From contig CM035358.1 of the NCBI GenBank assembly GCA_020137815.1, positions 2,852,001 to 2,916,000 of the forward strand: DNA of 64,000 nucleotides. Direction: 5' to 3'. This document shows, piece after piece, positions 4,908 to 57,879 of the stretch. The stretch's first letter is position 1; each line of letters begins with the position of its first letter. Both the position numbers and the translations under genes were made by a program. Origin of the DNA: Hormiphora californensis. Its lineage: Eukaryota; Animalia; Ctenophora. The notes below the pieces were generated by a model. The model searched no databases and was not told the DNA's origin. It saw only the letters and a list, made by a program, of their open reading frames with translations.

Positions 4908-7900
4908 ATGGAGGCTGGTTACTTCATAGGACTCTTCAGAGACAACCTTCAACGTAATAAGATTAGTGCTAGGACCAGTATCATTCTAAACATGTTATAT
5001 TCTGCATGTGACCCAGTCAGGGGTAAACATCTCCAATTCTGAAACACATTCCTAATCTTCAGAGGCTCTACCGAAATACAAGACTATCGATGGAAGTATA
5101 GAACGACTCAACCGTAGAACATTAGCTACCATATTCTTTGTTCTAAGTAAGCAAACCACGTGTGTTCAAGTTGACACTTTCTGTAATTTACTAACTGATA
5201 CCATGTTCAAGTCGAGACTGTAATTTACTAACTGATACCATGTTCAAGTTAGAATTAGAATTCACTGACTAAATTGTGAAAACTAACTTGATTTAGTAGG
5301 GACTGATCTACTAAATCTAACCTCAGGTGTTTTAAGTATTGAGGATGGGTTGCTAGGTAACAGGATAACATGTATGGGTTTTACTATTTTTAAAAACGAA
5401 GATTTTGTTAGGGTAAGTTTCTACACAATCCAAGAACAGTTTCTTTAATCGCGAATTCATCATTACATTGGCTTGTTCTCTACCTTCATTTACTTGCATG
5501 TAGATTCATATATTAAAATCCACTATGGTATGAGCTGTCCCACTGTGCAGGATTATTGTTGGACCCAGGGTATATTTACTAACCGGTACGCCTACGACAG
5601 ACCTCCCGATTCCATGCCTGCACCCGGTGTCATACCCTGTATCAGGTAATAAGATCATTGTTTTTATATTATATGTGAGCTAGAGCTGTCACAATATATA
5701 CTGCGGTATAGGCAAGCAAACACTCGTCGTGTAGATTAGTACACTCATTTGTACTCTAAAACATGTTTGAAGTTGTGAAACACACATGGTGGTATAAAGC
5801 TAAATTCAGCTGGGATTACCCTTGGATCCATCGCATCCTATTCTCGCTCTGCGAATAATAGGATCCCGGTCCGTTGAGAGCAAGAACTCACGTGCGCGCG
5901 ATATTAAAGCACGTTTTCAGCAGATCGCGCGTGATAGACCGTTTTTGGAGACCTTTTTAGCTGACCTAGCACTACTCAAAGGTCAATTATGGCCTCATTT
6001 TGCATCGTGATGAATCGGCGGGTATTTTCCCATACTCACAAGGCCATGACGATTCCCCCAGTACCCGCAGATTGTCCCAGGACCGAGTAGGAGCTTGCAG
6101 CCAGGTCTTAAATTAATTGCTCATGTTTAGCGTCAATTTTGACCCACTATTCCTCAAATGCTGATACTCGCGGGTATTTTCCGTAAAACTAGAGACAATT
6201 ATCTGCCAGGAGCAACAAACGAGATGCAAATCGGTTCGGTAGTTCCTTGCAGCCAGGTCTTTGAAAAAGTTTGCTCTAAAATCAATAACGCGCCGGAGGC
6301 CTAGATGTGAGATCGATCTCACTCAGGCATCAATGTGGCCAAGGATTACCCAATCTTGCCTTGCTTAACCCTCTTTCCGCGTGCTCTGCGGGTTTGAACA
6401 ACAAAACAAACCCTATCTAACTGCAGGTCTATAGACGGGTACAAGTGTTCCAATGAGGAACAAAAGAAGCAGATAGTGTTTCATCTGTGGTACCAGTGGG
6501 TTCCAATGTTCTTTATACTCAGTGCTGGCATCTTCTACCTTCCTTATATCAGTAAGTAACAACCAGGAACCGACCGGACCAAGTAAACAATCAATCAGAG
6601 CTCGTTATTTAGGTCACGTGACTGGTTATCAGCCAATCAGGGACCAGTATTTCCTGATTCGGTTCTATTTTGTTGTTAGTGTTGCCACGTGAAATGTCTC
6701 AACTCACGAGAGAGGAGGTACAACCTAAACTACATATATTTCAAGATCCAACTCATTTCAGTAACCCGTGGATCCATAGTGGGTAAATTGTCACGGTTTG
6801 TGGACAGCCTCCAGAAACCAGATGATTTAGTTGGGGAGGGAGGATCGGCAGAACGGCTGGGGAAACTTCTCTACTATTGGATCGATATGAATCTTCAAAA
6901 ACGGTTCGTGATTGCCTTATATTTGTCCAAACATTTTCGATCTGAAAGGCCCGGTACATCGATGGCCAAACGTGCTATTGTTTGTTTAGACTGTGATACC
7001 ACGCAATTCCAATTTGCAATTCCAACCTTTCAGATACCAGGCGAATCCCTTTGTTCAGTTTACAGTTCCATTTGTTCAGCTCCTAACTAAAGCGGCCTAT
7101 CTAGCTGTTTCTACTGGACATTTCTATGTAACAGGTAGGTTTGAGTTTGAACCTTCGAGGGGTATCTAAATGATGGTATAATATCACTCGCGAACTGTTC
7201 TTCAAACAGCTGTCATATCATAATTGGTAACCTAATCTGTCTTCTACCTACTCTGTGACAGAGGCTCTGTCTCCTACCTCTACATTATCTTTCTGATTTT
7301 GTACTATTTCTCCTACATCATCTCTCTTGCCCCAACTACGAACACAATCGTCTCTCTTGCCCCCAACTACTAACGTACAATCGTCTCTCTTGCCGGCCCA
7401 ACTACTAACACACTCATCTCTCTTGCCTTCAACTACTAACGTACAATCCTACAGGTCTGATGTTTCCCATTGGAAATTACTACAGGCTGGGTATAACCTG
7501 GCACATTGCCGAGACTGATAACTACACTCATGTGGGTGATGTCTTGTTCCCCAAAATGGCCGGGTGTCTGGTCCAGAAGTACACCAGTTCAGGTCAGTCA
7601 AAACATTCTGAGTCCCTGTCACACTTCTTTTTATTTTTTGTTGTTGTCAACTACACGAACTACGACGATATATTAAATCTGTGAAGTTAGACCACCGTTT
7701 TCTATCCTTTGAACGACTAATAAGTAACCAAGCCCCTGTATGTCACTGTGTACTGCACTTTGAACGGCGTGTTGATATTGATTTCCTAATGCAGGTATAA
7801 GCCAGGAGGCGGGTATGTGTAACCTAGCTCCTAACGTAGTGTTCCAGTATCTCTTCCTGATAACATGGTGGTGTGTTGCAATCATAACCGGTGAGTTGTT

Positions 7901-9566
7901 TTGGCAGGAACCGACCGAAACAAGTAAACAACCAATCAGAAATCGTTATATAGGTCACGTGACTAGTTATCAGCCAATCAGGGACCAGTGTTTCCTGATT
8001 CGATCGGTTCCTGTTTTTTGACAGCTGCTGTTTGAACGAAACAAGAGTTTGTAACACTGGCATCTGATTCTTGTTGTGATGGGTTGACCAATACCCTTCC
8101 ATTAGTCATATAGTTTTTACTAGCGAAGTAACTACCCTCCGACCTCTTTTCAGCTCTCAATCTGCTGAGTCTACTAAAGGGTATAGGAGAGTTGTTTGTC
8201 CATCAGTTTATCTACAAGATCTTTAAACACGACCTAGATGTATCGTATGATAGGAGCAATGGCCAAAGTAGCACAGAATACAGAGGTAAACAATCATACT
8301 ACTTACTAAGCAAATTGTGTGACAGAGATCACCTAGCAACTACACTTGCACGTGCAATTATTAGAGAGACCTGGAGATCTCTCTCCCGGTTGCAGTTGGG
8401 TACCAAGGGGAAATTCAATTCTGCACGTGCATTCTTTTACTTCTGTCCTGATGTCTAGCTCTTCCACCCCAAGCGCTATTCGGCAACGGTTATATGGGTC
8501 CAGAAGATCTGCTGCTGTCAGAGAGCAGGCTAGAGAATATGACAGATTACGCCAACGTGTTCAAGTGAGCCAATCAACGACTACGGATAGCTTTACCCAA
8601 CGTCGCCCAAGGGTGATTACTCCAGTCGAATAAAGAAATCTCCGAATCGGCTACGTAGCGGCCAAGTTTTCACGTGATGAATTTCTGGAACAGCACTGCA
8701 TCAGGCACCTCCATGACATTGATCTCTTAAATTCGGACCTTGACATTGTCAGGAAGCCCAGAGCGTACAACAACATGAGTAGGGAGAAAGTGAGAGATAG
8801 GCTAGGAACGGATGGTGCAGGTGATGTCAGCGTTCCCTAATCCAGTTACCATTTCCCCGAAATTCGCCCGTAGGGCGAACGGGCCTACTAGTAGTTTATT
8901 ATGGGATTTAGTGTGGGAGGATAATAATTGATATTTAATTCCATGATTACATATTTAATTGTCCGTATCACCGAATACTTTCACCATTACAAAAATCTCA
9001 CTGATAAAGATTTCAATTTCAGGTCCAACAAAGGATGATACTCAGATAATATTCGCGTATTATGACCTCAGTTCCCACATTATGTTTCACCTAATTTCTG
9101 ACAACGTTCATCCTGCTATTCTCGCTCTCGGGCTTAGGTATGTGTTCGCCGTTCGGATGACCGTTCTTGGACTCGCTATTTTGTAATGGGTTGCATTGGT
9201 CATTGAGTATGGTCTACCCGCTCTTATCCACACACGACATGGCGAGAGAGTGCAGCGTAGGAGGGGGTAGAGACAAGGGGGACCTTGTACCCAAGGTTGG
9301 TCAATGGTTGCAATGTTTAATCTCATTTCCTTCCATACAGGTTCACAGCAGAGCGGATACGAGACGAGATGGGACGAGATGAGGAACTTCGTCAATTCGT
9401 TATGTCGAGAATTCACGAACATGGTGGTCACAATGGAGAGAGTTCTGGTGGTAACCATGGCAACCAACCAGGGGGCAGGGGGATATCGTTAAATGCAGTC
9501 CGTAAGGGCTATAAATCGTTGTTACCAAAGACTAAGAAATTGAAAGACGGTTCGACGCAGTTGTAG
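4908..9566 (+). CDS. inx: Innexin (gap-junction/pannexin superfamily), paralog 1, 12 coding exons
   Basis: Exons 4908-4953, 5063-5146, 5327-5412, 5551-5645, 6427-6551, 6762-6903, 7034-7134, 7455-7592, 7795-7890, 8154-8285, 9023-9137, 9341-9566 join in frame with GT-AG introns. Motifs ITC..DYCWTQG, HLWYQWVP, LFPKMAGC, MCNLAPNVVFQYLFL. Confidence 0.93.
5822..6342. mobile_element. Non-autonomous DNA transposon remnant in innexin-1 intron 4
   Basis: Flanked by a 9-bp direct repeat ggattaccc (5813-5821 and 6343-6351), short inverted ends (ttggatcca / tggccaa), and an internal ~150-bp duplication. Confidence 0.4.
6564..6665. mobile_element. ~105-bp hAT-like MITE, copy 1 (right end degenerate)
   Basis: caggaaccgacc...gtcacgtgac...cctgattcggttc; near-identical copy at 7905-8013. 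Confidence 0.75.
7318..7450 (+). repeat. 4 x ~33-nt tandem repeat containing branch-point consensus TACTAAC, directly upstream of the acceptor at 7453-7454
   Basis: Unit tcRtctctcttgcc(n)caactactaacRYacaa; three copies carry a perfect TACTAAC. Confidence 0.85.
7905..8013. mobile_element. ~108-bp hAT-like MITE, copy 2
   Basis: TIR caggaaccga...tcggttcctg; degenerate 8-bp TSD (tgttttgg / ttttttga); same terminal sequence as the 21098-22424 element. Confidence 0.8.
8294..8891 (+). mobile_element. Non-autonomous Helitron-like element in innexin-1 intron 10
   Basis: 5' A|TCATACTAC; 3' hairpin gcccgt-agggcga-acgggc followed by CTAG|T; sits between A and T with no TSD; contains an Arg-rich ORF fragment. 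Confidence 0.55.
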
Positions 9567-10011: not shown

Positions 10012-13000
10012 ATGGGTGTCACTTCTCACTACAGGGGAGATGGGTTCTTTACTGGAACTTTCAGGGACATTACTAACAGTAAGTACTTTCTTTGTGAACC
10101 ACTTCCTAAGCTGGGTCTTGCTCTTTACTTTGGCGGCGCAAACCTAATCTGAGCGCACTGTTGCACGCTCACTGCGTCGCTCAGATTAGATTTTGAAACG
10201 GGGTCTAACGGCTTTGTTGTAGCTTTCTGTGTCTCTTTTCCATATCGTTCTCTCCAGGTATCCAGAGGCTAAGTAACCGGTTCCAGTCCATTGACAGCAA
10301 CTTGATGGATTTGTTTTGCGATGAGATCTTCCCTGCTATGATGCTGGCATGTTCTATCATCTCACTGTCTCGGGAGCTACTTGGCAGTAGGCTGACCTGT
10401 ACTGGAAATGAGGCCTTCAAACGGCAATTCGTGAAGGTAATAGTCAGCAATTAGCCAATTATGTGTTAATTGAATCATGATCATACATCCAAATAATGTC
10501 CAACTAACACATGAACTGTGATCATACATCCAACAAGTAAACAGTTTGTCTACATTCGATCTATACATTTCAGGATTATTGCTGGTCTCAGGGGTTGTTC
10601 ACTAACAGATACGCCTATGATCTCCCTGTATCTCAGTTACCTGCTCCTGGTGTTGTACCCTGCATCAGGTGAGGGAACTTAATAAACCTGATATATCACA
10701 CGTAGTATTCAGTAGTCACCGTAACCTTCCATTGTTCAGACAGTCTCGTTCAGATTTTCGGCCTGATCCATTGAAAAACGTCAGTATAACAGTCAAACTC
10801 ACACCACCTCCCCTAGGATAGAAGACAACTACCAGTGCTCACCTAACATCCCCCTCCCTCTAGGATAGAAGACAACTACCAGTGCTCACCTAACATCCCC
10901 CTCCCCCTAGGATAGAAGACAACTACCAGTGCTCACCTAACATCCCCCTCCCCTCTAGGATAGAAGACAACTACCAGTGCTCACCTAACATCCCCCTCCC
11001 CTAGAATAGAAGACAACTACCAGTGCTCACCTAACATCCCCCTCCCCTAGGATAGAAGACAACTACCAGTGCTCTCCTAACATCCCCCTCCCCTCTAGGA
11101 TAGAAGACAACTACCAGTGCTCTACCTAACATCCCCCTCCCCTAGGATAGAAGACAACTACCAGTGCTCACCTAACATCCCCCACCCTCTAGGATAGAAG
11201 ACAACTACCAGTGCTCACCTAACATCCCCCTCCCCTCTAGGATAGAAGACAACTACCAGTGCTCACCTAACATCCCCCCTCCCCTCTAGGATAGAAGACA
11301 ACTACCAGTGCTCACCTAACATCACCCTCCCCTCTAGGATAGAAGACAACTACCAGTGCTCTCCTAACATCCCCCTCCCCCAGGATAGAAGACAACTACC
11401 AGTGCTCTCCTAACATCACCCTCCCCCAGGATAGAAGACAACTACCAGTGCTCTCCTAACATCACCCTCCCCTCTAGGATAGAAGACAACTACCAGTGCT
11501 CACCTAACATCCCCTCTCCCCTCTAGGATAGAAGACAACTACCAGTGCTCACCTAACATCACCCTCCCCTCTAGGATAGAAGACAACTACCAGTGCTCTC
11601 CTAACATCACCCTCCCCTCTAGGATAGAAGACAACTACCAGTGCTCACCTAACATCACCCTCCCCTCTAGGATAGAAGACAACTACCAGTGCTCACCTAA
11701 CATCACCCTCCCCTCTAGGATAGAAGACAACTACCAGTGCTCACCTAACATCCCCCTCCCCTAGGATAGAAGACAACTACCAGTGATCACCTAACATCCC
11801 CCTCCCCTAGGATAGAAGACAACTACCAGTGCTCACCTAACATCACCCTCCCCTAGGATAGAAGACAACTACCAGTGCTCACCTAACATCACCCTCCCCT
11901 CTAGGATAGAAGACAACTACCAGTGCTCACCTAACATCACCCTCCCCTCTAGGATAGAAGACAACTACCAGTGCTCACCTAACATCCCCCCCCCTCTAGG
12001 ATAGAAGACAACTACCAGTGCTCACCTAACATCCCCCTCCCCTAGGATAGAAGACAACTACCAGTGCTCACCTAACATCACCCTCCCCTAGGATAGAAGA
12101 CAACTACCAGTGCTCACCTAACATCCCCTCTCCCCTAGGATAGAAGACAACTACCAGTGCTCACCTAACATCCCCTCCCCTCTAGGATAGAAGACAACTA
12201 CCAGTGCTCACCTAACATCACCCTCCCCTCTAGGATAGAAGACAACTACCAGTGCTCACCTAACATCCCCCTCCCTCCTAGGATAGAAGACAACTACCAG
12301 TGCTCACCTAACATCACCCTCCCCTAGGATAGAAGACAACTACCAGTGCTCACCTAACATCCCCTCTCCCCTAGGATAGAAGACAACTACCAGTGCTCAC
12401 CTAACATCCCCCTCCCCTAGGATAGAAGACAACTACCAGTGCTCACCTAACATCCCCCTCCCCTAGGATAGAAGACAACTACCAGTGCTCACCTAACATC
12501 CCCTCCCCTCTAGGATAGAAGACAACTACCAGTGCTCACCTAACATCCCCTCTCCCCTAGGATAGAAGACAACTACCAGTGCTCACCTAACATCCCCCTC
12601 CCCTCTAGGATAGAAGACAACTACCAGTGCTCACCTAACATCCCCCTCCCCTAGGATAGAAGACAACTACCAGTGCTCACCTAACATCCCCCTCCCTCTA
12701 GGATAGAAGACAACTACCAGTGCTCACCTAACATCCCCCTCCCCTCTAGGATAGAAGACAACTACCAGTGCTCACCTAACATCCCCCTCCCCTCTAGGAT
12801 AGAAGACAACTACCAGTGCTCACCTAACATCCCCCTCCCCTCTAGGATAGAAGACAACTACCAGTGCTCACCTAACATCCCCCTCCCTCTAGGATAGAAG
12901 ACAACTACCAGTGCTCACCTAACATCCCCCTCCCTCTAGGATAGAAGACAACTACCAGTGCTCACCTAACATCCCCCTCCCCTAGGATAGAAGACAACTA

Positions 13001-16000
13001 CCAGTGCTCACCTAACATCCCCCTCCCTCTAGGATAGAAGACAACTACCAGTGCTCACCTAACATCCCCCTCCCCCTAGGATAGAAGACAACTACCAGTG
13101 CTCACCTAACATCCCCCTCCCCTCTAGGATAGAAGACAACTACCAGTGCTCACCTAACATCCCCCTCCCCTAGGATAGAAGACAACTACCAGTGCTCACC
13201 TAACATCACCCTCCCCTCTAGGATAGAAGACAACTACCAGTGCTCACCTAACATCCCCCTCCCCTCTAGGATAGAAGACAACTACCAGTGCTCACCTAAC
13301 ATCACCCTCCCCTCTAGGATAGAAGACAACTACCAGTGCTCACCTAACATCCCCCTCCCCTCTAGGATAGAAGACAACTACCAGTGCTCACCTAACATCC
13401 CCCTCCCCTAGGATAGAAGACAACTACCAGTGCTCACCTAACATCCCCCTCCCTCTAGGATAGAAGACAACTACCAGTGCTCACCTAACATCCCCTCCCC
13501 TCTAGGATAGAAGACAACTACCAGTGCTCACCTAACATCCCCCTCCCCTAGGATAGAAGACAACTACCAGTGCTCACCTAACATCCCCCTCCCCTAGGAT
13601 AGAAGACAACTACCAGTGCTCACCTAACATCCCCCTCCCCTCTAGGATAGAAGACAACTACCAGTGCTCACCTAACATCCCCCTCCCCTAGGATAGAAGA
13701 CAACTACCAGTGCTCACCTAACATCCCCCTCCCCTAGGATAGAAGACAACTACCAGTGCTCACCTAACATCCCCCGCCCTCTAGGATAGAAGACAACTAC
13801 CAGTGCTCACCTAACATCCCCCTCCCCTAGGATAGAAGACAACTACCAGTGCTCACCTAACATCCCCCTCCCCTCTAGGATAGAAGACAACTACCAGTGC
13901 TCACCTAACATCCCCCTCCCCTAGGATAGAAGACAACTACCAGTGATCACCTAACATCCCCCTCCCCTCTAGGATAGAAGACAACTACCAGTGCTCACCT
14001 AACATCCCCTCTCCCCCAGGATAGAAGACAACTACCAGTGCTCACCTAACATCCCCACCCTCTAGGATAGAAGACAACTACCAGTGCTCACCTAACATCC
14101 CCTCTCCCCTAGGATAGAAGACAACTACCAGTGCTCACCTAACATCACCCTCCCCTAGGATAGAAGACAACTACCAGTGCTCACCTAACATCCCCCTCCC
14201 CTCTAGGATAGAAGACAACTACCAGTGCTCACCTAACATCCCCACCCTCTAGGATAGAAGACAACTACCAGTGCTCACCTAACATCCCCCTCCCCTAGGA
14301 TAGAAGACAACTACCAGTGCTCACCTAACATCCCCCTCCCCTAGGATAGAAGACAACTACCAGTGCTCACCTAACATCCCCCCCCCCCTAGGATAGAAGA
14401 CAACTACCAGTGCTCACCTAACATCCCCTCTTTCCTAGGATAGAAGACAACTACCAGTGCTCACCTAACATCACCCTCTCCCCTAGGATAGAAGACAACT
14501 ACCAGTGCTCACCTAACATCACCCTCCCCTAGGATAGAAGACAACTACCAGTGATCACCTAACATCCCCTCTCCCCCTAGGATAGAAGACAACTACCAGT
14601 GCTCACCTAACATCACCCTCCCCTAGGATAGAAGACAACTACCAGTGATCACCTAACATCACCCTCCCCTCTAGGATAGAATACAACTACCAGTGCTCAC
14701 CTAACATCACCCTCCCCCAGGATAGAAGACAATTACCAGTGCTCACCTAACATCACCCTCCCCCCTAGGATAGAAGACAACTACCAGTGCTCACCTAACA
14801 TCCCCCTCCCCTAGGATAGAAGACAACTACCAGTGCTCACCTAACATCCCCCTCTCCCCTAGGATAGAAGACAACTACCAGTGCTCACCTAACATCCCCC
14901 TCCCCTAGGATAGAAGACAACTACCAGTGCTCACCTAACATCCCCACCCTCTAGGATAGAAGACAACTACCAGTGCTCACCTAACATCCCCCTCCCCTCT
15001 AGGATAGAAGACAACTACCAGTGCTCACCTAACATCACCCTCCCCTCTAGGATAGAAGACAACTACCAGTGCTCACCTAACATCCCCCTCCCCTCTAGGA
15101 TAGAAGACAACTACCAGTGCTCACCTAACATCCCCCTCCCCTCTAGGATAGAAGACAACTACCAGTGCTCACCTAACATCCCCCTCCCCTCTAGGATAGA
15201 AGACAACTACCAGTGCTCACCTAACATCACCCTCCCCTCTAGGATAGAAGACAACTACCAGTGCTCACCTAACATCCCCCTCCCCCTAGGATAGAAGACA
15301 ACTACCAGTGCTCACCTAACATCCCCCTCCCCTAGGATAGAAGACAACTACCAGTGCTCACCTAACATCCCCCTCCCTCTAGGATAGAAGACAACTACCA
15401 GTGCTCACCTAACATCCCCCTCCCTCTAGGATAGAAGACAACTACCAGTGCTCACCTAACATCCCCTCTCCCTAGGATAGAAGACAACTACCAGTGCTCA
15501 CCTAACATCCCCACCCTCTAGGATAGAAGACAACTACCAGTGCTCACCTAACATCACCCTCCCCTCTAGGATAGAAGACAACTACCAGTGCTCACCTAAC
15601 ATCACCCTCCCCTCTAGGATAGAAGACAACTACCAGTGCTCACCTAACATCCCCTCTTTCCTAGGATAGAAGACAACTACCAGTGCTCACCTAACATCCC
15701 CCCTCCCCTAGGATAGAAGACAACTACCAGTGCTCACCTAACATCCCCACCCTCTAGGATAGAAGACAACTACCAGTGCTCACCTAACATCACCCTCCCC
15801 TCTAGGATAGAAGACAACTACCAGTGCTCACCTAACATCCCCCTCCCCTAGGATAGAAGACAACTACCAGTGCTCTCCTAACATCCCCACCCTCTAGGAT
15901 AGAAGACAACTACCAGTGCTCACCTAACATCCCCTCTCCCCTAGGATAGAAGACAACTACCAGTGCTCACCTAACATCCCCTCTCCCCTAGGATAGAAGA

Positions 16001-19000
16001 CAACTACCAGTGCTCACCTAACATCCCCACCCCCTAGGATAGAAGACAACTACCAGTGCTCACCTAACATCCCCCTCCCCTAGGATAGAAGACAACTACC
16101 AGTGCTCACCTAACATCCCCCCCCTAGGATAGAAGACAACTACCAGTGCTCACCTAACACCCCTCCCCCTAGGATAGAAGACAACTACCAGTGCTCACCT
16201 AACATCCCCTCCCCCAGGATAGAAGACAACTACCAGTGCTCACCTAACATCCCCCACCCCTCTAGGATAGAAGACAACTACCAGTGGCTCACCTAACATC
16301 CCCCTCCCCCCCATTAGATAAAGACAAACTACCAGTTGCTCATCCTAACAATCACCCTCACCCATCTAGGATAGAAAGCAACTACGCAGTGGCTTCACCT
16401 AACATCACCCTCCCCATCTAGGATAGAAGACAAACTACCAGTGCTCACCTAAACATCACCCTCCCTCTAGGATAGAAGACAACTACCAGTGACTCCACCT
16501 AACATCACCCTCCCTCTCTAGGGGATAGAAGACAAACTACCAGGCCCACCTACATCCCCTTTCCCTAGGATAGAAGAAAAAGACCATAAAAAAACAACCA
16601 GTGTCACTAACATCCCTCCCAGCGATAGACAACTACCGTCTCCCAATCTGTTATGTACTTCTTTTGACGTCTCACCGACCTCTAAGGATTACGGAGAACG
16701 CTTAAATATCTCTTGGTCATCCGTGAATGTCCTCCCAGGGACTAGAGCTAACTCTGACACCCAGTTTCCCTCCCTGGAGTGAAAAAACCATGTGTCAGGT
16801 TTTTATCCCCCAGTTAAACCTAGCCGTGCTCACAATGAACAACCGTTCCTGTGAAAATAACACCGTTAGAGCTACATTGAGGTAAACATAATGTGCAAAC
16901 AACTGAACACATTGGTAGAGTCAAGTTAAGTGACTCACTAACATCCCCTCTCCCCCTAGGATAGAAGACAACTACCAGTGCTCACCTAAACACCCCTCCC
17001 CCCTAGGATAGAAGACAACTACCAGTGCTCACCTAACATCCCCCTCTCCCCTAGGATAGAAGACAACTACCAGTGCTCACCTAACATCCCTTCTTTCCTA
17101 GGATAGAAGACAACTACCAGTGCTCACCTAACATCACCCTCCCCTAGGATAGAAGACAACTACCAGTGCTCACCTAACATCCCCCTCCCCCCTAGGATAG
17201 AAGACAACTACCAGTGCTCACCTAACATCACCCTCCCCTCTAGGATAGAAGACAACTACCAGTGCTCACCTAACATCCCCCCCCCCCTAGGATAGAAGAC
17301 AACTACCAGTGCTCACCTAACATCCCCCCCCCCTAGGATAGAAGACAACTACCAGTGCTCTCCTAACATCACCCTCCCCTAGGATAGAAGACAACTACCA
17401 GTGCTCACCTAACATCCCCTCTCCCCTAGGATAGAAGACAACTACCAGTGCTCACCTAACATCACCCTCCCCCAGGATAGAATACAACTACCAGTGCTCA
17501 CCTAACATCCCCCTCCCCTAGGATAGAAGACAACTACCAGTGCTCACCTAACATCCCCCTCCCCTAGGATAGAAGACAACTACCAGTGCTCACCTAACAT
17601 CCCCCTCCCCTAGGATAGAAGACAACTACCAGTGCTCACCTAACATCCCCCTCCCCTAGGATAGAAGACAACTACCAGTGCTCACCTAACATCCCCCTCC
17701 CCCTAGGATAGAAGACAACTACCAGTGCTCACCTAACATCCCCACCCCCTAGGATAGAAGACAACTACCAGTGCTCACCTAACATCCCCCTCCCCTAGGA
17801 TAGAAGACAACTACCAGTGCTCACCTAACATCCCCCTCCCCTCTAGGATAGAAGACAACTACCAGTGCTCACCTAACATCCCCCTCCCCTAGGATAGAAG
17901 ACAACTACCAGTGCTCACCTAACATCCCCCTCCCCTAGGATAGAAGACAACTACCAGTGCTCACCTAACATCCCCCTCCCCTAGGATAGAAGACAACTAC
18001 CAGTGCTCACCTAACATCCCCCTCCCCTAGGATAGAAGACAACTACCAGTGCTCACCTAACATCCCCCTCCCCTAGGATAGAAGACAACTACCAGTGCTC
18101 ACCTAACATCACCCTCCCCTCTAGGATAGAAGACAACTACCAGTGCTCACCTAACATCCCCCTCCCCTAGGATAGAAGACAACTACCAGTGCTCACCTAA
18201 CATCACCCTCCCCTCTAGGATAGAAGACAACTACCAGTGCTCACCTAACATCCCCCTCCCCTAGGATAGAAGACAACTACCAGTGCTCACCTAACATCAC
18301 CCTCCCCTAGGATAGAAGACAACTACCAGTGCTCACCTAACATCCCCTCTTTCCTAGGATAGAAGACAACTACCAGTGCTCACCTAACATCCCCACCCTC
18401 TAGGATAGAATACAACTACCAGTGATCACCTAACATCCCCTCCCCTCTAGGATAGAAGACAACTACCAGTGCTCACCTAACATCCCCACCCTCTAGGATA
18501 GAATACAACTACCAAGGCTCTCCTAACATCCCCCTCCCCTAGGATAGAAGACAACTACCAGTGCTCACCTAACATCCCCCTCCCCTAGGATAGAAGACAA
18601 CTACCAGTGCTCGCCAGATCAAGCGGAAAAGCAGAAAGTCTTTCACTTGTGGTACCAGTGGGTTCCTTTCTATTTCTTTCTTAGCGTCATGGTTTTCTGG
18701 GCTGTAACCCATGGTAAATTAAATCAGTTGGACAGACTTGCTTATTTAAAAAAACAACTACCACACGTCTTGTGTATAATGGTCGTTCCTAAGTGATGTA
18801 TGCAGGAGAATTAGGCATTTGTTCAGTATTTTGATAAGATTCTCCAGTCAATAACCGTCCCCTGCTCTCCCAGTATTCAGTGCCAAGTGTCGCCTCTCCA
18901 AGATGAAATCTCACCTGCTGGAGAAGAGTCTCTCTGATGATGATGAGTTGCATCTCTGGTTGCGGCACTACATGAGACGAAGGTAGATAGGGATGTTTTA

Positions 19001-22000
19001 CTTGATTTTAATCTTGTTTGTTTTACAAATTAAAAACAACGGAAGTTTTTAAGGTCTATTCTTGTTTGTTTTATTGAGTCGCAAGAGAATCTCATCTTGT
19101 TTAGACCTTCCTTCTTCCCCGACAATACTTGTTGAGTAAGACTGTAAGTCAAAACTGTAGTTACAAACAGTACAAACAAAAAGCCCTTTGTTTTCAGGAT
19201 AGATCAGTCCCTGGTTGCCCAGTACAGTATACCCCTTTCTTTTCAGGATAGATCAGTCCCTTGTTGCACAGTACAGTTTACCGCTTTCTCTTCAGGATAG
19301 ATCAGTCCCTTGTTGCACAGTACAGTATACCCCTTTCTTTTCAGGATAGATCAGTCCCTAGTTGCCCAGTACAGTATACCCCTTTCTTTTCAGGATAGAT
19401 CAGTCCCTAGTTGCCCAGTACAGTATACCCCTTTCTTTTCAGGATAGATCAGTCCCTAGTTGCCCAGTACAGTATACCCCTCTCTTTCCAGGATAGATCA
19501 GTCCCTAGTTGCTCAGTACAGTATACCACTTTCTTTTCAGGATAGATCAGTCCCTAGTTGCCCAGTACAGTATACCCCTTTGTTTTCAGGATAGATCAGT
19601 CCCTAGTTGCCCAGTACAGTATACCCCTTTCTTTTCAGGATAGATCAGTCTCTAGTTGCCCAGTACAGTATACCCCTTTGTTTTCAGGATAGATCAGTCT
19701 CTAGTTGCCCAGTACAGTACACCCCTTTGTTTTCAGGATAGATCAGTCTCTAGTTGCCCAGTACAGTACACCCCTTTGTTTTCAGGATAGATCAGTCCCT
19801 AGTTGCCCAGTACAGTATACCCCTTTGTTTTCAGGATAGATCAGTCCCTAGTTGCCCAGTACAGTATACCCCTTTGTTTTCAGGATAGATCAGTCCCTAG
19901 TTGCCCAGTACAGTATACCCCTTTCTTTTCAGGATAGATCAGTCCCTTGTTGCACAGTACAGTATACCCCTTTCTTTTCAGGATAGATCAGTCCCTAGTT
20001 GCTCAGTACAGTATACCACTTTGTTTTCAGGATAGATCAGTCCCTAGTTGCTCAGTACAGTATACCACTTTGTTTTCAGGATAGATCAGTCCCTTGTTGC
20101 CCAGTACAGTATACCCCTTTCTTTTCAGGATAGATCAGTCCCTAGTTGCTCAGTACAGTATACCCCTTTCTTTTCAGGATAGATCAGTCCCTTGTTGCAC
20201 AGTACAGTATACCCCTTTGTTTTCTGCTGCGGAGGAGTGTATTCTGTCTGGTGGCGCTAATCCAGTTCATAATTACAAGTAAAACAATTATTGAGAGTCA
20301 TTTTGTGAGATACGTCGGACCCCGATTTACCGGGATGCTCGGACGGAAGGATTTTGTCCATTAAATTGGGTGCCGACTGATATATCAGAAGTCATTAAAA
20401 TTAAAGCCACATTATTATCTAACTCTCTCCAGTCTCCAATTTAAAATATTACTTATCTCCCCAGAGTTTATGTTTCCCATCGGGGATTTCTACCAGCTGG
20501 GCCTGAAATGGCACATTCCAGAGACTGATAACTACACTCATGTGGGTGATGTCTTGTTCCCCAAAATGGCCGGGTGCCAAATACTCAAATACGGGTCTTC
20601 AGGTAAGATTTCTGTGAGAAATAGGTTCACAAATCACTTTTAGTTTCAGGTTGGACATGTGATCCGAACAAGGCCAGGTGCATTGATTCAGAAGTCTGAA
20701 CCTGATGCTTCATTGGCCTACATTCGTCACACTTTCCTAATCGCGTTTATGTAACGCGCGGGTCATTTGACCAACTGGAAGTGGAACTGACTCTTGTCAA
20801 ACATGCGTGACGCGCAGACACCCCTCCCACTTATGACACACACCCACACGTCAATACGTCATGTCAACACTCAACATTGTCTAGCCGATACTGGCTTACC
20901 CCCCGGGGTCCTTTACCTACAGTTATTGCTGCTAGCAACATTTCTCTTCATATGACAATTTCTCTCTCAGGAATTATCACTGAAACTGTGATGTGCAGTG
21001 TTGCTCCGAATGTAGTTATCCAGTACCTTTTCCTTCTATCCTACTGGGCTCTACTTTTCGCTATAGGTAATATAAATATCCTTGTCATGGTTAATCCCAG
21101 GAAACGACCGAACCGGGTTTTTTTCCACCGAACCGAACCGAACCGAATTTGAAAAACTTTTTTACCGAACCGAACCGAACCGAACCGAATCGAATTTCGG
21201 TAACCGAACCGAACCGAACCATACAAAACTTTTTCTGTATAAATGTTTCTCTAAAAAGTCATGGAGAGCACCGATCAAGGTATTGAGAATCATTCTCTGA
21301 AATTTTGTTAAAAAATGTTTGAAAAATTTCAAAGTCAATTTTGTGAAAAAATTTTCAAAGTCAATTTTATCGTAAATTTTCTATGTCAATTTTTGCGTAC
21401 GAATCGTGTTTCGAATCGGCAATGCTATACGGGAATGGTATTGCTACCATTAAACGAACCATGAATCGTGTCTCTCTAAATTTCCTAATTAGATTTGATG
21501 GGGGATCACGTATCAGCACAATCCATCTCGGACCCACTAATTACCAACATCACTCCCGTTTAGCATTGTCGATTAGAAACACGATTCGTATACCATAATT
21601 TACTTAAAATATTTTTCACAAAAAAAATTTCATTTCAGGTAATGATTCTCAATACCTTGATCGATGCTCTCCATGAATTTTTAGAGAAACATTTAATTTT
21701 GTGAAAAAACTTTGTAAAATATTTCAAAGTCAATTTCGGAAAAAAATTTTGCCGTACGAATCGTGTTGCGAATCGGTGATGCTATGCAGCAGTGCTCTCG
21801 CTAATTAGCAGGATTTATTGAAACATGAATCGTTTCCCCTAAACTTCCTAATTAGATTTGATGGGGGATCACGTATCAGCATAATCCATCTCGGACCCAC
21901 TAATTAGCAACATCACTCCCGCTTAGCAATACCGATTCGAAACACGATTCGTACGCAAAAATTGGCATAGAAAATTTTCCATAAAATTGACATTGAAATA

Positions 22001-23239
22001 TTTTCCAAACTTTTTTACAAAATTTCAGAGAATGATTCTTAACACCTTGATCGGTGCTCTCCATGAATTTTTTGAAAAAAAAAGTTTCTGAATTTGTTGA
22101 CCCTCTCATGAGGACACGATTCGACGGGAAGTCAGGTATCAAATCAATCCATATCGAACCCGCTAACTAGCGAAATCATTTCCACATAGCACCACCGATT
22201 CGAAATAGGGTTAATACGGCGAAATTGACATTGAAATCCATACAATTTTCGTGAAATAATTGAAAAATTTTGCATGAAAAAGCCCGATTTCTGGGCATTT
22301 TTTGACCAAAAAATTCGGTGGTTCGGCCAAAAATTTCCTACCGAACCGAACCGAACCGAACCGCCCAAAAAACACCGAATTTCCGAACCGAACCGAACCG
22401 AACCGAATATTCGGTCGCTTCCTGGTTAATCCCATCCCTAATTGTTAAATATCAAATCCTAATTTATCTCCCTGTACCTCAGTACAGCTCAAATACTAAT
22501 TTGTCTCTCTGTTCCTCAGTTGCCAGTTTTCTGAACACCCTGTACACGGTTTCGATGTTCAAACGAGTTTCCCTCAGTGCCATCCTATTCAGACTCCCCC
22601 AAGAACCATTTGATGGAGATGGGGATGATAGCTATTACACAGGTTTTTACTTTATAATATCTATTTAGAAGTGCCCGGAGGATGACCCAATAGTTGTGTC
22701 CCTTCTAACCTACCCTAAGCCATCTGGTATTTTAATTCCATCCCTCCATCTCTATTTTCCTACCCAATAATAATCCCTCCCAGTTGTTACAAAGCCACAG
22801 CTGAAAAAAATAGCGGCGTATTTCGATCACAGCTCTATGATTGTCCTCAATGCAGCTGTCCATACGCATGATCCCTACAAAATGACGAGGTAAGATCTTT
22901 TTCCCTCCCTAGTCCCTATCCCTAGTTCCTATCCCTAGCTTCTTTAGTATGTTTTCAATTTCCCACTGAAGTTATAATTTAGTTTTTAACGAAGTGTATC
23001 CTCTCTTATTCTCGTACCCTTTCTCTCCCAGGTACATTATCTACCTAAGTTCGCTAGTGAGGCATCAGGAGCACACTGGGGAGGCTAGAGTGTGTCGGAA
23101 ACCTGGTCTTCTCAACTCACTACTACGGTGTCTCCCCATCCAGATACCAATGTTTGGTTCCAATACTGCTGCAAGATATGGTACACTGACTGATAACAAC
23201 CCTGATAACAACCCTGATAACAACCCTCCCCAGACTTAA
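10012..23239 (+). CDS. inx: Innexin, paralog 2, 11 coding exons
   Basis: Exons 10012-10078, 10258-10436, 10574-10668, 18589-18713, 18874-18982, 20178-20278, 20465-20602, 20971-21066, 22520-22642, 22784-22889, 23032-23239 join in frame. Motifs LTC..DYCWSQG, HLWYQWVPF, LFPKMAGC, MCSVAPNVVIQYLFL. Intron positions and phases match paralog 1. Confidence 0.93.
10805..18612 (+). repeat. Intronic tandem array (~46-48 nt unit, ~155 copies estimated) made of branch point, pyrimidine tract, 3' splice site and the first 24 nt of innexin-2 exon 4
   Basis: Unit acctaacatccccctcccc(tc)tag|gatagaagacaactaccagtgctc. The final copy runs into the real exon (..tgctcgccagatcaag..). Garbled or non-repeat interruption at about 16270-16930. 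Confidence 0.95.
19184..20224 (+). repeat. Intronic tandem array (49-nt unit, 21 acceptors) made of the 3' splice site plus the start of innexin-2 exon 6
   Basis: Unit ccctttSttttcag|gatagatcagtccctWgttgcMcagtacagtatac. First exon-start copy at 19198, last at 20178 (980 nt = 20 x 49). Confidence 0.95.
21098..22424. mobile_element. Non-autonomous hAT-superfamily DNA transposon (1327 bp) in innexin-2 intron 8
   Basis: 15-bp TIRs caggaaacgaccgaa / ttcggtcgcttcctg; perfect 8-bp TSD gttaatcc (21090-21097 and 22425-22432); subterminal (ccgaa)n arrays; internal direct and inverted duplications; no transposase ORF. Confidence 0.9.
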
Positions 23240-32794: not shown

Positions 32795-35700
32795 ATGTTA
32801 CTCCGCCGAGGACTGGTCGCTTTGGCGGTGGTTCTAATTCTTGTTTCTTCTCAGTCAACCCGTAAGTAAACAGCAAGAAATCATTTTATTTATCCGAAGT
32901 CGGATTATTTTCATTTTGTGGTTGAATGGCCTGCCCATTTTCTTAAACTGAATTTCACCAATACAAGTAAACTGATCTTTTTAGGTTGGATCACTGTTTC
33001 TGAGTTACCAGGGCCAACAGAAGATGAGTTGAACAAACTCAACGCCAAAGGTCTAAACCCGAATTCTGAAACGTTTCACGTTATGCGATGGAACACAGAT
33101 GGGCAGATTTTTGGAAAACAACACTCAGTCAGCCAAAAATATATAATGTTCCTGGAGAAGAAAGATGGAGAGGCGATTAATATCATCTTTTCTCACAAAG
33201 AAGACCAAGTTACCAGGCTCCTCTGGGATGAAAACAGTATCGAAGAGATCGGTAGTAAAACTTACTGTAGCGATTACATAGCTACAATAGCTACAGTTGA
33301 CTGTTCATCGGCTGAATTCTGGATTGTAGCGAAAAATAAGGACAAAGAACCTTTGAACATCTACTGTGGTTCCCAGTTAAAGTATCAAGTTAAAAGTGCA
33401 GGTACTGATTGTATTTTTGAAAAGCATCCAGACGACACGTACTTCCATTCTTCACTGAGCAATCACTATGTGTATTGGAGTGTACTTGAATTAGGTACGT
33501 AACACAAAATATATAAACTAAACTATTGAGTTTGTACATAAAACATTAGAATTATTAAAATATTCTGTAATCTGTATTTACATAAAACGTATTACATGCC
33601 ACGCTGAGTATTCAAATACACTATACTATTTCTCAGATTCGAGCTGCTACACAAATGGTCAATATGTGTACGCTAAATCTGGAACTGGAGAATGTAAATC
33701 ATGTCCGAGTGTGAGCAAGCCCTTTCCGATAATCTACAAGGGAGTTCAAGAAGCTTACAACTGTCTGAGTTCAACCCATCGACCGCTTGTTGGTCCCAGC
33801 TTTCACATTGGTAAGTCTTAACTAAACAGTTCTACCTAAATACGCCTAAATAAAATAGTTTTATATATCACGATCAGTTTTATTTTTATTTACCTGAGTT
33901 GCTTTTTTTCAGGATGGGCACATGCTGATGCCTGTGAAACATCGAACTGTGCAATCACCTTGAAAGATTATAATACGATTACCTTCGAGATTTCTGATCC
34001 AAACCAAAACAATCAAGTTATCAAGTTTTATGGCGGCTCGAATACGTTTCTTCAAGTTTTGGTTAAATTTAGCTCGACAACTGCAGAGGTGTACTTTGGT
34101 TGTAATATAGCTGTGAACGATATTCCTTCTACAGCAATAGCTAAAGAATACATTAATAGTGGAATGATTGCTGGATGCTCAACTACTCTCAAGATCCAAC
34201 TTGACCGAACAAATCCTGGGTATCCCGTGCTGCAGTTCGCTTGTGATGATAACTGGGACGAGACTTTTGTTTCACATCAGATTGCCTGTATCAACCTGAC
34301 AAGTTTCTCCTTCTCGACAGACATGATTTACACCGGTTATACTGAACAAGGTAAGCAGTGTGTGGGATTTAACTTAAATTTAATTTACTTAAACCATTCC
34401 TCGCCAGAGTCTACGAACATGCAGTGTGGACTGGGCTATGGTTTGTCTGGATCCCAAGTCTGTATGATGTGCACTGAAGGGCATTATAGTGATACAGTAG
34501 ACGACCAGGCGTGTAAAGTATGCCCTGAAAACAGTGTTAGCAATTCTGATTTCTCAGGATGCGGTAAGTTAAAATGGAAATAACCTTGCGTCGAACTAAG
34601 ACCCGTATTTGTTTCTCGAAAGTCTAAATCCTTAATATTTATATAGTTAACTTTATTCAGTTTGTAATGCGGGATATGGACCAACTGATAGCGGTACACA
34701 CTCTAGCGATACTACTCAATGTTCATGTGGAGAAGGATATTATATTTCACCGGGAGAAGCAACAGTATCACCAGGAGCAGCAGATTGCACTAAGTGTCCA
34801 TCAGGAGCAACAAACAATACTGATTTTACTAAGTGTGGTAAGTTCGAAGACAATACTGATTTTACTAAGTGTGGTAAGTTCGAAAACAATACTGATTTTA
34901 CTAAGTGTGGTAAGTTCGAAGACAATACTGACTTTACTAAGTGTGGTAAGTTCGAAAGCTAGTGTATTTAGGTACTTACCAGTAACTTGAAACTCGTTTA
35001 GTTTGTGAAATGGGATATGCAGGAACCGATAGCAACGCTTGTACAGCATGTGTCGCTGGTTCATACTCGGCCGCTACTGGTTCAACTCAATGTACCAAGT
35101 GTGCCTACGGATCTATTTCAATTTCACCAGGAGCAACATGGTGCACTCAGTGTCCGTCAGGAGCAACCAACAATGATGATTTTACTGAGTGTGGTAAGTT
35201 TGAAAGAGTGAGACTTTTCTTTTCATATCAGTGACTTGAAACTCTTTTAGTTTGTGCAGCGGGATATGCAGGAACCGATAGCAACTCTTGTACAGCCTGT
35301 GACGCTGGTTCATACTCGGACGTTACTGGCGCAACTCAGTGTAAAACTTGTGACACTGACTACGTGTCAACTTCATCAGGAGCAACAAGTTGTACCGAGT
35401 GTACAAAAGGAGCAACTAACAATGATGTTTTTACTGAGTGTGGTAAGTGTTTAGGCAGGAAAGCACAACTTAGATAATTAACACACATTTTACACGACAT
35501 TTTCCCTGCCCGGATGAATGCCTTGCAAAAAGGCATAGCAGGGTTAGAATTTGAAAATGACATAATAATTAAATGTTCACCGTTACCTGCTACGCAACTG
35601 CTCCTTCATAAACCACTTCAATGACACGTTTTCATGAAATGTTTGGCGCATATTGTGGGGTTAATGCAACTTTCCTGACAGTGGTCATCCGACATATTCC

Positions 35701-37876
35701 GACGTGAAATTCGACCTGAATCTCGACCTGGAATGAGGCGCGCATCAGAGAGATTCATTCCAGGTCGAGATTCAGGTCGAATTTCACGTCGAGGTATGGC
35801 AATTATGTCGGATGACCACTGTGAGCCGCGAGTAGATACCGTTCCAGGAAAAGTATCCAGGTGCTTCACACGGCATAGCTGATAGCAGGGTTATAACATA
35901 ATGCGAATAATCTTGTTTACAGTTTGCCCAACTGGAACCTCTGGAGACCCATCATCTTGTCAAGACTGCCTGGCCGGAACCTTCACTGACACCAAGGGTC
36001 AGGCTTCCTGTACACAGTGCGATGTGGGCTACTTTTCTAGTCAGGCAGCTTCTTCCTGCACTCAATGTGACTCTGGGTTCACCAATAATGCTGACTACTC
36101 TTCTTGCGGTAAATCAATTTTTCCAATTTAAGTCCTATTTTGTTGGTCTAGGTCCATTATATCCGGATTAATTAAGCTAACAAAATCCCATCCTACACCC
36201 AACTAATCGCGTAATTATATTCAGTTTGCAAAGCGGGATATGAACTAACCGATGGCAGTACATGTACACAGTGTGGAGCCGGCTCATACTCGGACTACAC
36301 TGACGCAACAGAATGTAAACCTTGTGACACTGGCTACATTTCACCTTCATCAGGAGCAACAACTTGTACCATGTGTCCATCAGGAGCAACCAACAATGAT
36401 GTTTTTACTGAGTGTGGTAAGTTTGAAAAAGAGTGACTTTAATTGAAACTCTTTTACCACTGAGTGTGGTAAGTTCGAAAGTGATAGATTTGTCTTTTCT
36501 TATATGAGTACCTAAGTGTAACTTGAAACTCGTTTAGTTTGTCTGGCGGGATATGCAGGAACCGATAGCAACGCTTGTACAGCATGTGGAGCTGGTTCAT
36601 ACTCGGCCGTTACTGACACAACTCAATGTACCAAGTGTGCTGAAGGAACTATTTCAAGTTCACCAGGAGCAACAGAGTGCAGTCAGTGTTCAACAGGATT
36701 CACCAGCAATGATGATTATGATCAATGTGGTAAGTATTCACTATTCAGACGGGAAACATATATCTTAGGTAACATACATTTTACTCGACATTTTTTCACA
36801 GTTTGCCCAACTGGAACCTATGGAGACTCTTCATCTTGTCAAGACTGCCCAGCCGGAACCTTCACTAACACCAAGGGTCAAGCTTCCTGTACACAGTGCG
36901 ATGTGGGCTACTTTTCTAGTGGAGGGGCTTCTTCCTGCACGAAATGTGACTCTGGGTTCACTAATAATGCTGACTTCTCTGCTTGCGGTAAATCAATGTT
37001 TACAATATTTTTAGACTCCACAATATAACCAACTGAGCTACCTTGACCACATTTAAATCTTTCAGTGTGCCCCATCGGTACATCAGGGTCTACCTGTGAT
37101 AGTTGCCCTGACAACAAACTCAGTCCCATGGGATCACCTGACCCTGCATCTTGTACAGAAGGTAGATTAACTTGCTGTCCTGCTGAGTGGCTTTCTCACG
37201 TTTGACCTACACCAAGTCTTACTGTTATTGATAATTAGTTTATGGTTAAATAATATTAATTTTATCAGATTGGATAAAGCTAGGAGAAGGCACCTACACG
37301 ATTGATCTGAGTTCGGTCTCCAAAGTTTTGTTTAAGCTTCTAGCTGGTCAGGATGCCATTGTAGTTTTCATGACAGATACTGCTGTGTTATGTGAACATA
37401 CTACTAGTACTGGACTAAGTGAATACAAGCTATTGAAGACTGGAGATGAATGGAGGTAAGTCCCTTTCCAAGACAGATATATGTAGATTCTACACATTGT
37501 AGAATGTGTGACCTGACGTTCTACGTGACGCCACTTTTGGGTGATGGAATTTCACTTTTGTTGCCAAATCACAATTATAGCACATGCGCTTGTCCGTTTC
37601 GTGTCTTCGTATCGCATACTTCCATCTACTGACTAAACAAAATAGTCAAGATAGCACATTCTTATTCATTGTTATTACTATCCCCACTATTTCAGTTGGT
37701 CCGATATAACATGTGGAGATCCCTTCACCCTTACTAATTTAATTGTTACCCTGGGATCTACATCAGCATCCAGTTCTCAAATCCTCAAATTGAAAGCAGA
37801 AACACCAGGTGGTGGAGAAGGTGGTGGTGGTGGTGATAGTGGTGGAGGTGATAAGGAAAGTCTAACGGGAAAGATA
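32795..37876 (+). CDS. Secreted or surface protein B, tandem paralog of A with a different number and order of Cys-rich repeat exons
   Basis: Signal exon 32795-32861 (MLLRRGLVALAVVLILVSS). Exon 32985-33494 is highly similar to 24749-25252. Repeat exons run from 34409 to 37161. C-terminal exons ~37269-37455 and 37697-~37876 are homologous to A. The final exon and stop are uncertain. Confidence 0.8.
34815..34957 (+). repeat. 4 x 36-nt tandem repeat spanning a 5' splice site
   Basis: Unit caatactgattttactaagtgtg|gtaagttcgaaRa; donor GTs at 34838, 34874, 34910, 34946. Confidence 0.9.
35679..35822. mobile_element. Hairpin MITE within an intronic insertion of gene B
   Basis: acagtggtcatccgacata..cgacgtgaaattcgacctgaatctcgacctggaatga / tcattccaggtcgagattcaggtcgaatttcacgtcg..tatgtcggatgaccactgt. 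Confidence 0.7.
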
Positions 37877-45150: not shown

Positions 45151-49219
<4,069 letters not shown>

Positions 49220-57200: not shown

Positions 57201-57799
57201 TCTTATCCGTCGACAGCTGCAGTTGTTCAATTTAGACGTGTGCCTTTAATCATTTATTCTTGACAGTATATTATGTAATCTGGGACCTCTGTTACACCCC
57301 TATCAACAATAGTACCATGAACCTTGGGACCTTGGGATGACTGCTTTGAGCAAGTTTAATCCTTGACCCATTTCAGGCTGACCCTGGCTCAGATTTATGA
57401 GTTCATTATGGAGAAGTTTCCATACTACAAGGACAATAAACAAGGATGGCAGAATAGTATTAGACATAACCTGTCTCTAAATGACTGCTTTGTAAAGGTA
57501 GGAAACATCACCTTTGTTTTTTTCCTCGTCTCGGTTTAGATATCATTGAATTTGAGAAGATCGGGAAAAGATGAAACCATTGTGATTGTCCACCAAGAAA
57601 TGTGTGTATCAGTTTGCTTCTGAAGTACTATAAAAAGTAATATTTGCCATGTTTGTCTACCCAAATAAATTCTACCCAACAAGTGGTGTTGAATGGTTCA
57701 TTTTCACCATTACCCTTTATCAGTGGACACATTTGTCAGTGAGTGTATACACCAGGAAGTGTTCTCGAGTTAAACAAACAACATCGGCACACTCCCCCA

Positions 57800-57879
<80 letters not shown>

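Follow-up and report, generated by a model that had tools for sequence, protein, structure and literature searches.

How does a gene yield one intact protein when the acceptor of an intron, together with the start of the following exon, is repeated some 155 times before the exon itself is reached? The question arises in a 64,000-nt window of the ctenophore Hormiphora californensis (GenBank assembly GCA_020137815.1, contig CM035358.1, positions 2,852,001 to 2,916,000 of the forward strand; the window is this whole stretch, and coordinates below refer to it), where intron 3 of innexin-2 (10012–23239, + strand) consists largely of a tandem repeat, here called array 1. Intron 5 of the same gene holds a second acceptor array (array 2), which was absent from the preliminary description of the locus. 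Both are probably splice-junction minisatellites, or 'mirages', seeded by microhomology and grown by slippage or unequal exchange, in which the last copy is spliced and the rest is a tolerated by-product.

The innexin-2 model has 11 exons on the + strand, with GT–AG boundaries at 10 of 10 introns and an open frame of 448 aa. Exons 1–3 occupy 10012–10078, 10258–10436 and 10574–10668; exon 4 (125 nt) lies at 18589–18713 and exon 5 (109 nt) at 18874–18982, followed by the intron 5 donor at 18983; and exons 6–11, placed by the gene model and alignment, lie at 20178–20278, 20465–20602, 20971–21066, 22520–22642, 22784–22889 and 23032–23239 (stop included). The model is identical to the Pleurobrachia bachei protein P0001 (EukProt EP00116_Pleurobrachia_bachei_P005943) at 263 of 273 aligned residues (96%), with 100% identity in exon 2, and to the Mnemiopsis protein P0002 at 160 of 393 residues. 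P0001 scores 72.6 bits on the Innexin family PF00876 (cut-off, 25). Its own gene model carries exon 6 in duplicate, one copy being out of frame, and ends after exon 7; the doubled exon is probably an assembly or annotation error and possibly two merged haplotypes. When innexin-2 exons were scanned singly against PF00876, exon 4 (20 bits) and exon 7 (13.8 bits) fell under the cut-off and five others gave no innexin match. Aligned with P0002–P0004, innexin-2 keeps the cysteines at LTC, DYC, IPC, YQC, AGC and VMC as well as WYQWVP in exon 4, which we take to be a YYQW-like innexin motif. A scan for related loci returned 10 distant innexins (26–34% identity), and a tandem paralogue, innexin-1, lies upstream.

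Intron 3 runs from the donor at 10669 (GTGAGG) to the terminal acceptor AG at 18587–18588 (7,920 nt, GT..AG). Its unique head (10669–10816), with a CTCAC branch-like motif and a diverged tract, is probably the leftover of an ancestral short intron and ends at the first acceptor (AG 10815–10816, 148 nt from the donor), an edge copy that has diverged from the units. Tandem Repeats Finder (TRF) placed array 1 at 10813–18612 (+ strand; period 46, score 11,837). Counting matches to AG plus the exon 4 start gave 155 copies from 10815 to 18587, the real acceptor included, and a fuzzy count gave 158, upholding the ~155 copies in a 7.9-kb intron first reported. The unit also has the anatomy then described, with a branch motif, a pyrimidine tract and TAG joined to the start of exon 4: the 24 exon-derived nt are followed by ACCTAACAT, the C-tract and TAG. 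Units measure 44–49 nt, with spacings of 46 nt (63 cases), 47 nt (36), 48 nt (47), 49 nt (3), 45 nt (2) and 44 nt (1) and two gaps of 156 and 489 nt. All 149 clean units keep the acceptor signal (TAG in 143, CAG in 6), while the C-tract occurs in 35 versions among them. There is no higher-order repeat in array 1, the longest recurring run of unit types being four. Units at 16266–16625 are degraded (two exact unit cores versus ~7.7 expected) and give way, at ~16625–16935, to ~310 nt that are not repeat and match nothing else in the window. This stretch (16266–16935, no strand assigned) is possibly low-quality consensus or an assembly join and, because it breaks the array, the exact length of array 1 is uncertain.

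Only the end of the array leads to the intact protein. The frame consequences predicted earlier for 46-, 47- and 48-nt units hold, and with the upstream paths now traced, a premature stop is reached from 154 of 154 upstream copies (median, 49 nt). Among 664 AGs tested in intron 3, full frame follows from two: the terminal AG (exon start 18589), already singled out as the source of the intact protein, and a tract-less AG before 18562 that adds 27 nt. Array 2 (19184–20224, + strand, identified from TRF and the sequence) repeats this arrangement with 21 copies of 49 nt, from a first AG at 19196–19197, 215 nt from the donor, to a terminal AG at 20176–20177. Its unit consists of the start of exon 6 up to a CCCTTT(C/G)TTTTC stretch, plus AG. 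Units end in CAG in 20 of 20 cases and stops follow from all 20 upstream copies, which brings the stop-leading copies of the two arrays to 174. Five of the 134 AGs tested around intron 5 and exon 6 are in frame, namely the terminal one, one located 24 nt upstream and three within the exon. The protein obtained from the terminal AGs is collinear with the Mnemiopsis innexins P0002 and P0003 (to which exon 4 also aligns collinearly), with no insertion at the exon 3/4 or 5/6 junctions.

The arrays are present in sequenced animals. Eight of 22 listed runs were compared with 18543–19246, including DNA runs X1 and X5 from two studies, which represent organism A, and runs X14 and X17 from a close relative, organism B, whose exons are ~90% alike to the window. 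Depth was summed over contigs, a rough measure that is no copy number. On this measure, array 1 units reached 1300–2400x the flank depth in X1 and X5 compared to 960–1480x in a simulation from the window's own array 1, or ~1.4–1.8x the window in summed depth rather than in copies, and C and CT length variants of the unit exceeded a depth of 5000 in both DNA studies. The X1 and X5 animals thus carry array 1 at similar or greater size, and the array is not an assembly artefact, the outcome that the preliminary description had named as a refutation; its exact length is uncertain. For array 2, depth over four bins was 12/85/66/24 in the simulation, 9/69/92/47 in X1 and 4/24/39/22 in X5, which as summed depth (again no copy number) corresponds to ~1x in X1 and ~0.3–0.9x in X5 and suggests a shorter array 2 in the X5 animal. 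Array size therefore appears to vary between animals. Near the start of array 2, the intron is polymorphic at 19013–19186, where 174 nt are missing from an X5 contig. A dispersed repeat of high depth lies at 19023–19059, flanked by many unrelated sequences in both organism A and organism B.

In organism B, both junctions are found at single-copy depth. Contigs extend unbranched for 254 and 865 nt upstream of the exon 4 acceptor, and a 628-nt contig continues for 587 nt from the start of exon 6. Given these single copies, both arrays most simply arose after the split between the two organisms, with loss in organism B as the alternative, and they are likely young. Organism B has TCA where exon 4 of the window has TCG (18613), a difference that would stretch the match between the unit and the ancestral exon to ~27 nt. 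The matching intron of innexin-1 (~781 nt) has no array, as previously noted.

How such arrays could start and grow is suggested by their sequence. After the split from the relative, a 46–48-nt piece that bridges the junction of intron 3 with exon 4 would have been duplicated at short direct repeats. The candidate seeds are weaker for array 1 (CTCAC/ACC) and plain for array 2, where CCCTTTGTTTTC occurs at the end of intron 5 and within exon 6; the native intron end reads CCCTTTGTTTTCAG and CCCTTTGTTTTCTG lies in exon 6, 49 nt further on, forming a direct repeat that may have seeded the duplication. Growth would then have proceeded by minisatellite turnover (slippage and unequal exchange), with the coding copy among the partners of exchange. 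Neighbouring units of array 1 are identical more often than in shuffled arrays (0.134 versus 0.083 at lag 1, p = 0.006), with an excess at lags 1, 2, 4 and 5 and none at lag 3, which fits ordinary minisatellite turnover and concerted evolution.

Variation among the units bears on whether they serve a purpose. An earlier claim that the exon-derived part of array 1 is nearly invariant, with variation concentrated in the C-tract, stands for its second half, since variation does pile up in the C-run, as slippage predicts; the near-invariance is not clearly specific to exon sequence. Variable columns number 4 of 24 in the exon-derived part versus 4 of 9 in the intron-derived part outside the C-run (P = 0.17). 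Counted per base, variants are rarer in the exon part (10/3576 versus 11/1341, P = 0.014), with the proviso that units share descent and are not independent. The idea that selection preserves the exon-derived part for some function was considered and found unsupported, given the column test and the presence of nonsense variants: TGC>TGA occurs in 5 of 150 units, alongside GAC>TAC (D>Y) in 4 of 150. Array 2 has 13 distinct variants, of which 9 are synonymous when read in the exon 6 frame, as are all five of those located within the first 31 nt (P ~0.001–0.002, post hoc), and changes at positions 16 and 22 of the coding exon recur jointly in units 2, 3 and 16. Because units cannot code without a frameshift, this synonymous bias points to variants that start in the coding copy and pass to the array by unequal exchange or conversion, and such a flow would be the simplest reading.

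If innexin-2 is made, the ~154 upstream acceptors of array 1 must be passed over, most plausibly by a choice anchored on the exon. The spliceosome would take the last copy as the sole one with both a full exon and a donor. Decoys offer 24–27 nt (array 1) or ~47 nt (array 2) of exon with no donor nearby, and only the last copies hold the full exon, with a donor 125 nt (array 1) or 101 nt (array 2) away. Among the 17 introns of both innexins, the array 1 acceptor is the sole TAG, and its tract, with 2 T in 15 nt, is the poorest in T; this weakness makes it likely to depend on exon context. According to the available part of PMC9225289, where sites are exon-defined the preferred pair is the one nearest across the exon, and where 3' sites are intron-defined it is the upstream acceptor that is preferred. 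Any leak to the decoys would give stop-containing RNA, to be cleared by nonsense-mediated decay (NMD). The locus thus retains its standing as an extreme case for exon definition; the companion proposal of a designed decoy array is unsupported, the arrays being absent from organism B, seemingly variable in size and interspersed with nonsense variants. NMD tuning or the titration of splicing factors, raised alongside it, is conceivable. Masking of the decoys by RNA structure was also rejected, as 18405–18720 was less stably folded than each of 100 shuffles (z = +2.67).

Indirect evidence that innexin-2 works comes from the differences among animals. Within organism A, 8 of 9 listed differences in exons 4 and 5 are synonymous, compared to 19–25% under neutrality (P ~1e-4 or lower), and relative to organism B the figure is 22 of 23. 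Indels outside the arrays are intronic in 7 of 7 cases, with none in exons. X1 carries one replacement change, K>T, at full depth. With the frame intact and indels restricted to introns, innexin-2 is most likely in working order, a state that requires the terminal AGs, and these are probably used. Among metagenomes, X7 yielded one contig on 18543–19246, which falls on a dispersed repeat, and the 24-nt start of exon 4 had no match in metagenome contigs. The small shares of the innexin-2 region seen in RNA and metagenome runs probably come from a repeat element in intron 8.

Splice sites elsewhere in the window are also repeated. A donor-side array at 34814–34956 (+ strand, from TRF and the sequence) has four copies of 36 nt, each with ...GTGTG|GTAAGT, and lies in a nearby gene with Cys-rich repeats. 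This gene is the second of two tandem genes, and another of its donors (GAGTGTG|GTAAGT) is doubled at 36408–36476. In an innexin-1 intron, 3.9 copies of a 33-nt repeat (7317–7448) reiterate a TACTAAC motif of the branch type, immediately upstream of the acceptor at 7453–7454. We counted the non-coding intragenic minisatellites of the window with a period of 30–100 nt and ~4 or more copies, a definition that leaves aside a coding 51-nt repeat, a 249-nt duplication, short-period repeats and repeats within repeat elements. Three of the four straddle a splice site, compared to an expected proportion of 0.20–0.27 (P ~0.03–0.06, post hoc), which is only a hint of a splice-junction bias.

Several observations weigh against the interpretation of the arrays as tolerated minisatellites with exon-anchored splicing. 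The main difficulty is one of distance. Donor and first decoy are separated by 148 nt in array 1 and 215 nt in array 2, distances at which an intron-defined choice favours the AG further upstream (PMC9225289, available part), and seven of the eight array-free introns of innexin-2 measure 137–368 nt. The array 2 acceptors look strong, being T-rich and ending in CAG. Both acceptor arrays sit at AG|GATAGA in one gene, and together with the three of four minisatellites on splice sites this hints at a bias that chance alone explains poorly. As for the working state of the gene, at 5 of the 8 sites that differ synonymously within the species, one allele is shared with organism B, and these sites may predate the arrays (of the other four sites, three are synonymous), and the difference tables cover only part of the changes, with P0001 having two further, unlisted amino-acid changes in exon 4. 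Finally, the RNA or possible-RNA runs X13, X20 and X22 contributed no contigs on 18543–19246, although these runs are mostly environmental and carry no evidence on expression.

These difficulties leave some room for decoys that matter. If they took a substantial share of splicing and NMD destroyed the products, array length would set the amount of functional innexin, whether or not this was selected. Such a role would draw on the stops that follow from all 174 upstream copies, on the position of the first decoys inside the intron-definition range, on the seeming variation of array size among animals, and on the human 6-16 and CBS genes, where two pseudo-donors beside the real donor are used (PMC1557585, available part). 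It is nevertheless unlikely: RNA support is nil across X13, X20 and X22, the missing arrays in organism B and in the paralogue speak against a conserved regulatory role, and amphioxus arrays are reported to leave splicing undisturbed (available parts of PMC3087553 and PMC3902484). In its boldest form, to which we give a small but real chance, ~154 acceptors are skipped, decoy leak scales with array length as a hypervariable, NMD-coupled dial on gap-junction output, and the arrays trade sequence with the coding exon. Were this true, strong exon-anchored 3' splice-site choice would operate in the sister lineage to other animals, and the decoys would store coding alleles and at the same time give rise to null alleles.

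The concentration of repeats at splice sites could instead reflect how they are seeded, either from an RNA template running from branch point to exon or through R-loops at paused 3' splice sites, so that junction repeats would arise above chance in this lineage. The intron part of the array 1 unit does begin a few nt before the CTAAC motif, and the 64 kb hold a donor array and a branch-site array besides the two acceptor arrays, in line with the excess of minisatellites on splice sites. We regard splicing-linked seeding as distinctly improbable, as the sample is small and post hoc, a DNA direct repeat explains array 2, and purging of wholly exonic, frameshifting duplications would enrich junction and intron cases without any special mechanism. 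The new repeat-expansion mechanism raised in the preliminary description likewise finds no support, since the class is already known as 'mirages' (available parts of PMC3087553 and PMC3902484) and array 2 stands on plain direct-repeat microhomology.

It is very unlikely that the arrays largely disable innexin-2, with the first AG being used, the transcript degraded and the gene decaying behind its tandem paralogue as a backup. The first AG is the one nearest the donor, the gene appears in no RNA contig and the K>T replacement is at full depth in X1. Against these stand the intact 448-aa frame with its 10 canonical introns, the contrast of no exonic with seven intronic indels, the synonymous excess within the species and the mostly environmental origin of the RNA runs, whose silence is no evidence; in addition, 155 copies and 35 tract variants would need time in which a dead gene should gain lesions. 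Stepwise (recursive) removal of the intron through its units, as once suggested, or birth of introns by tandem duplication (the Rogers model) could appeal to regularly spaced acceptors and to weak GT dinucleotides in both units, and is scarcely credible: each AG is followed by GA rather than GT, AGGT is in neither consensus unit and, by inspection, no GT/AG pair within the units restores the exact exon. An assembly artefact is practically out of the question, because the degraded patch and foreign insert in array 1 and a further low-quality patch at 39.9–40.9 kb are outweighed by the unit depth and length variants in two independent DNA studies, which leave only the exact length in doubt.

Some further features of the window deserve mention. 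Introns of the innexins contain a 1.3-kb repeat element with nested inverted repeats and ACCGA runs (21099–22424) and short elements with related GGAACCGACC inverted ends (6565–6670 and 7905–8013); by appearance, all three resemble miniature inverted-repeat transposable elements. The intronic segment 26704–28982 is taken up by large inverted repeats that are almost perfect (97%; arms of 884 and 610 nt) and may be a foldback-like element or a nested insertion. Two tandem genes at ~45200–49220 and 54300–59060 show forkhead-type motifs in translation and presumably belong to that family. Mixed homopolymer runs give ~39900–40900 a low-quality look, and together with the patch at 16266–16935 they indicate that the assembly has weak spots.

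Among known systems, the innexin-2 arrays most resemble the mirages of amphioxus (described here from the available parts of PMC3087553 and PMC3902484). PMC3087553 reports tandem duplications of an intron's 3' end together with the exon's 5' part in BflGb6, with six and three units by haplotype, cites Adh3 mirages with 10–72 bp units and gives a unit range of 10–160 bp; it also describes arrays that are unstable in length, evolve in concert and leave splicing regular. Troponin C and PGBD5 are further cases, given in PMC3902484. The two systems (with the globins BflGb6 and BflGb9, Adh3, troponin C and PGBD5 on the amphioxus side) share a unit of intron end and exon start, donor and acceptor versions, unit sizes of 10–160 bp, concerted evolution with diverged edges, and several arrays per locus region; copy numbers differ by haplotype in amphioxus and appear to differ between animals here. 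The innexin-2 arrays accordingly show a head-to-tail, boundary-spanning unit of minisatellite size, a retained splice signal, concerted evolution and a diverged edge. They differ from amphioxus in copy number (155–158 here versus 3–6 in BflGb6, with Adh3 copy numbers outside the comparison), in their setting in a ctenophore with short introns and a relative that shows the single-copy state, and in that normal splicing was shown there by reverse-transcription PCR and is inferred here.

Human junction variable number tandem repeats (VNTRs) are a second point of comparison (PMC1557585, available part): F7 IVS7 (37 bp, 5–9 copies), 6-16 (25 pseudo-sites), CBS IVS13 (15–20), LMNB2 and PDGF. There too a splice site is reiterated and the authentic, exon-proximal site is dominant; besides it, no more than the two nearest pseudo-sites are used. 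The human repeats are on the donor side, where the authentic site is transcribed first, whereas in innexin-2 the authentic acceptor comes last, behind 7.8 kb of decoys; the array at 34814–34956 is the direct donor-side analogue, while arrays 1 and 2 reiterate the 3' site. Intron gain of the Rogers type, which requires a duplicated AG|GT (PMC3265369, available part), similarly involves an intragenic tandem duplication that is spliced out with the protein unchanged. It differs in that an AG|GT within an exon makes a new intron; in innexin-2 an intron that already existed has grown longer, and the units have no AGGT.

For ctenophores, the part of the Hormiphora genome paper available reports that TRF marks 13% of the genome, and the host gene is one of the ctenophore innexins (PF00876), with a tandem paralogue upstream. 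The main text of a study of these innexins (bioRxiv 10.1101/2022.10.11.511657) does not contain the word 'intron', the available part of PMC10078293 held no acceptor-array case, and the literature searched, with subscription journals and supplements outside its range, had no junction-spanning repeats in a ctenophore. The class of junction minisatellites is therefore already known, and array 1 of innexin-2 is the largest by copy number among the published cases compared, as far as the available parts of these sources go, with 155 or more competing acceptors in one intron versus up to 25 pseudo-sites. Short junction overhangs cannot separate the real acceptor from its decoys, with the consequence that aligners and gene models may misplace the junction. 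The locus brings its own controls, namely an orthologue that is single-copy in the relative, a paralogue free of arrays, a second array of acceptors and, nearby, one of donors; the arrays are a good natural substrate to test how far exon definition overrides proximity in a ctenophore, and whether longer arrays reduce the yield of functional mRNA.

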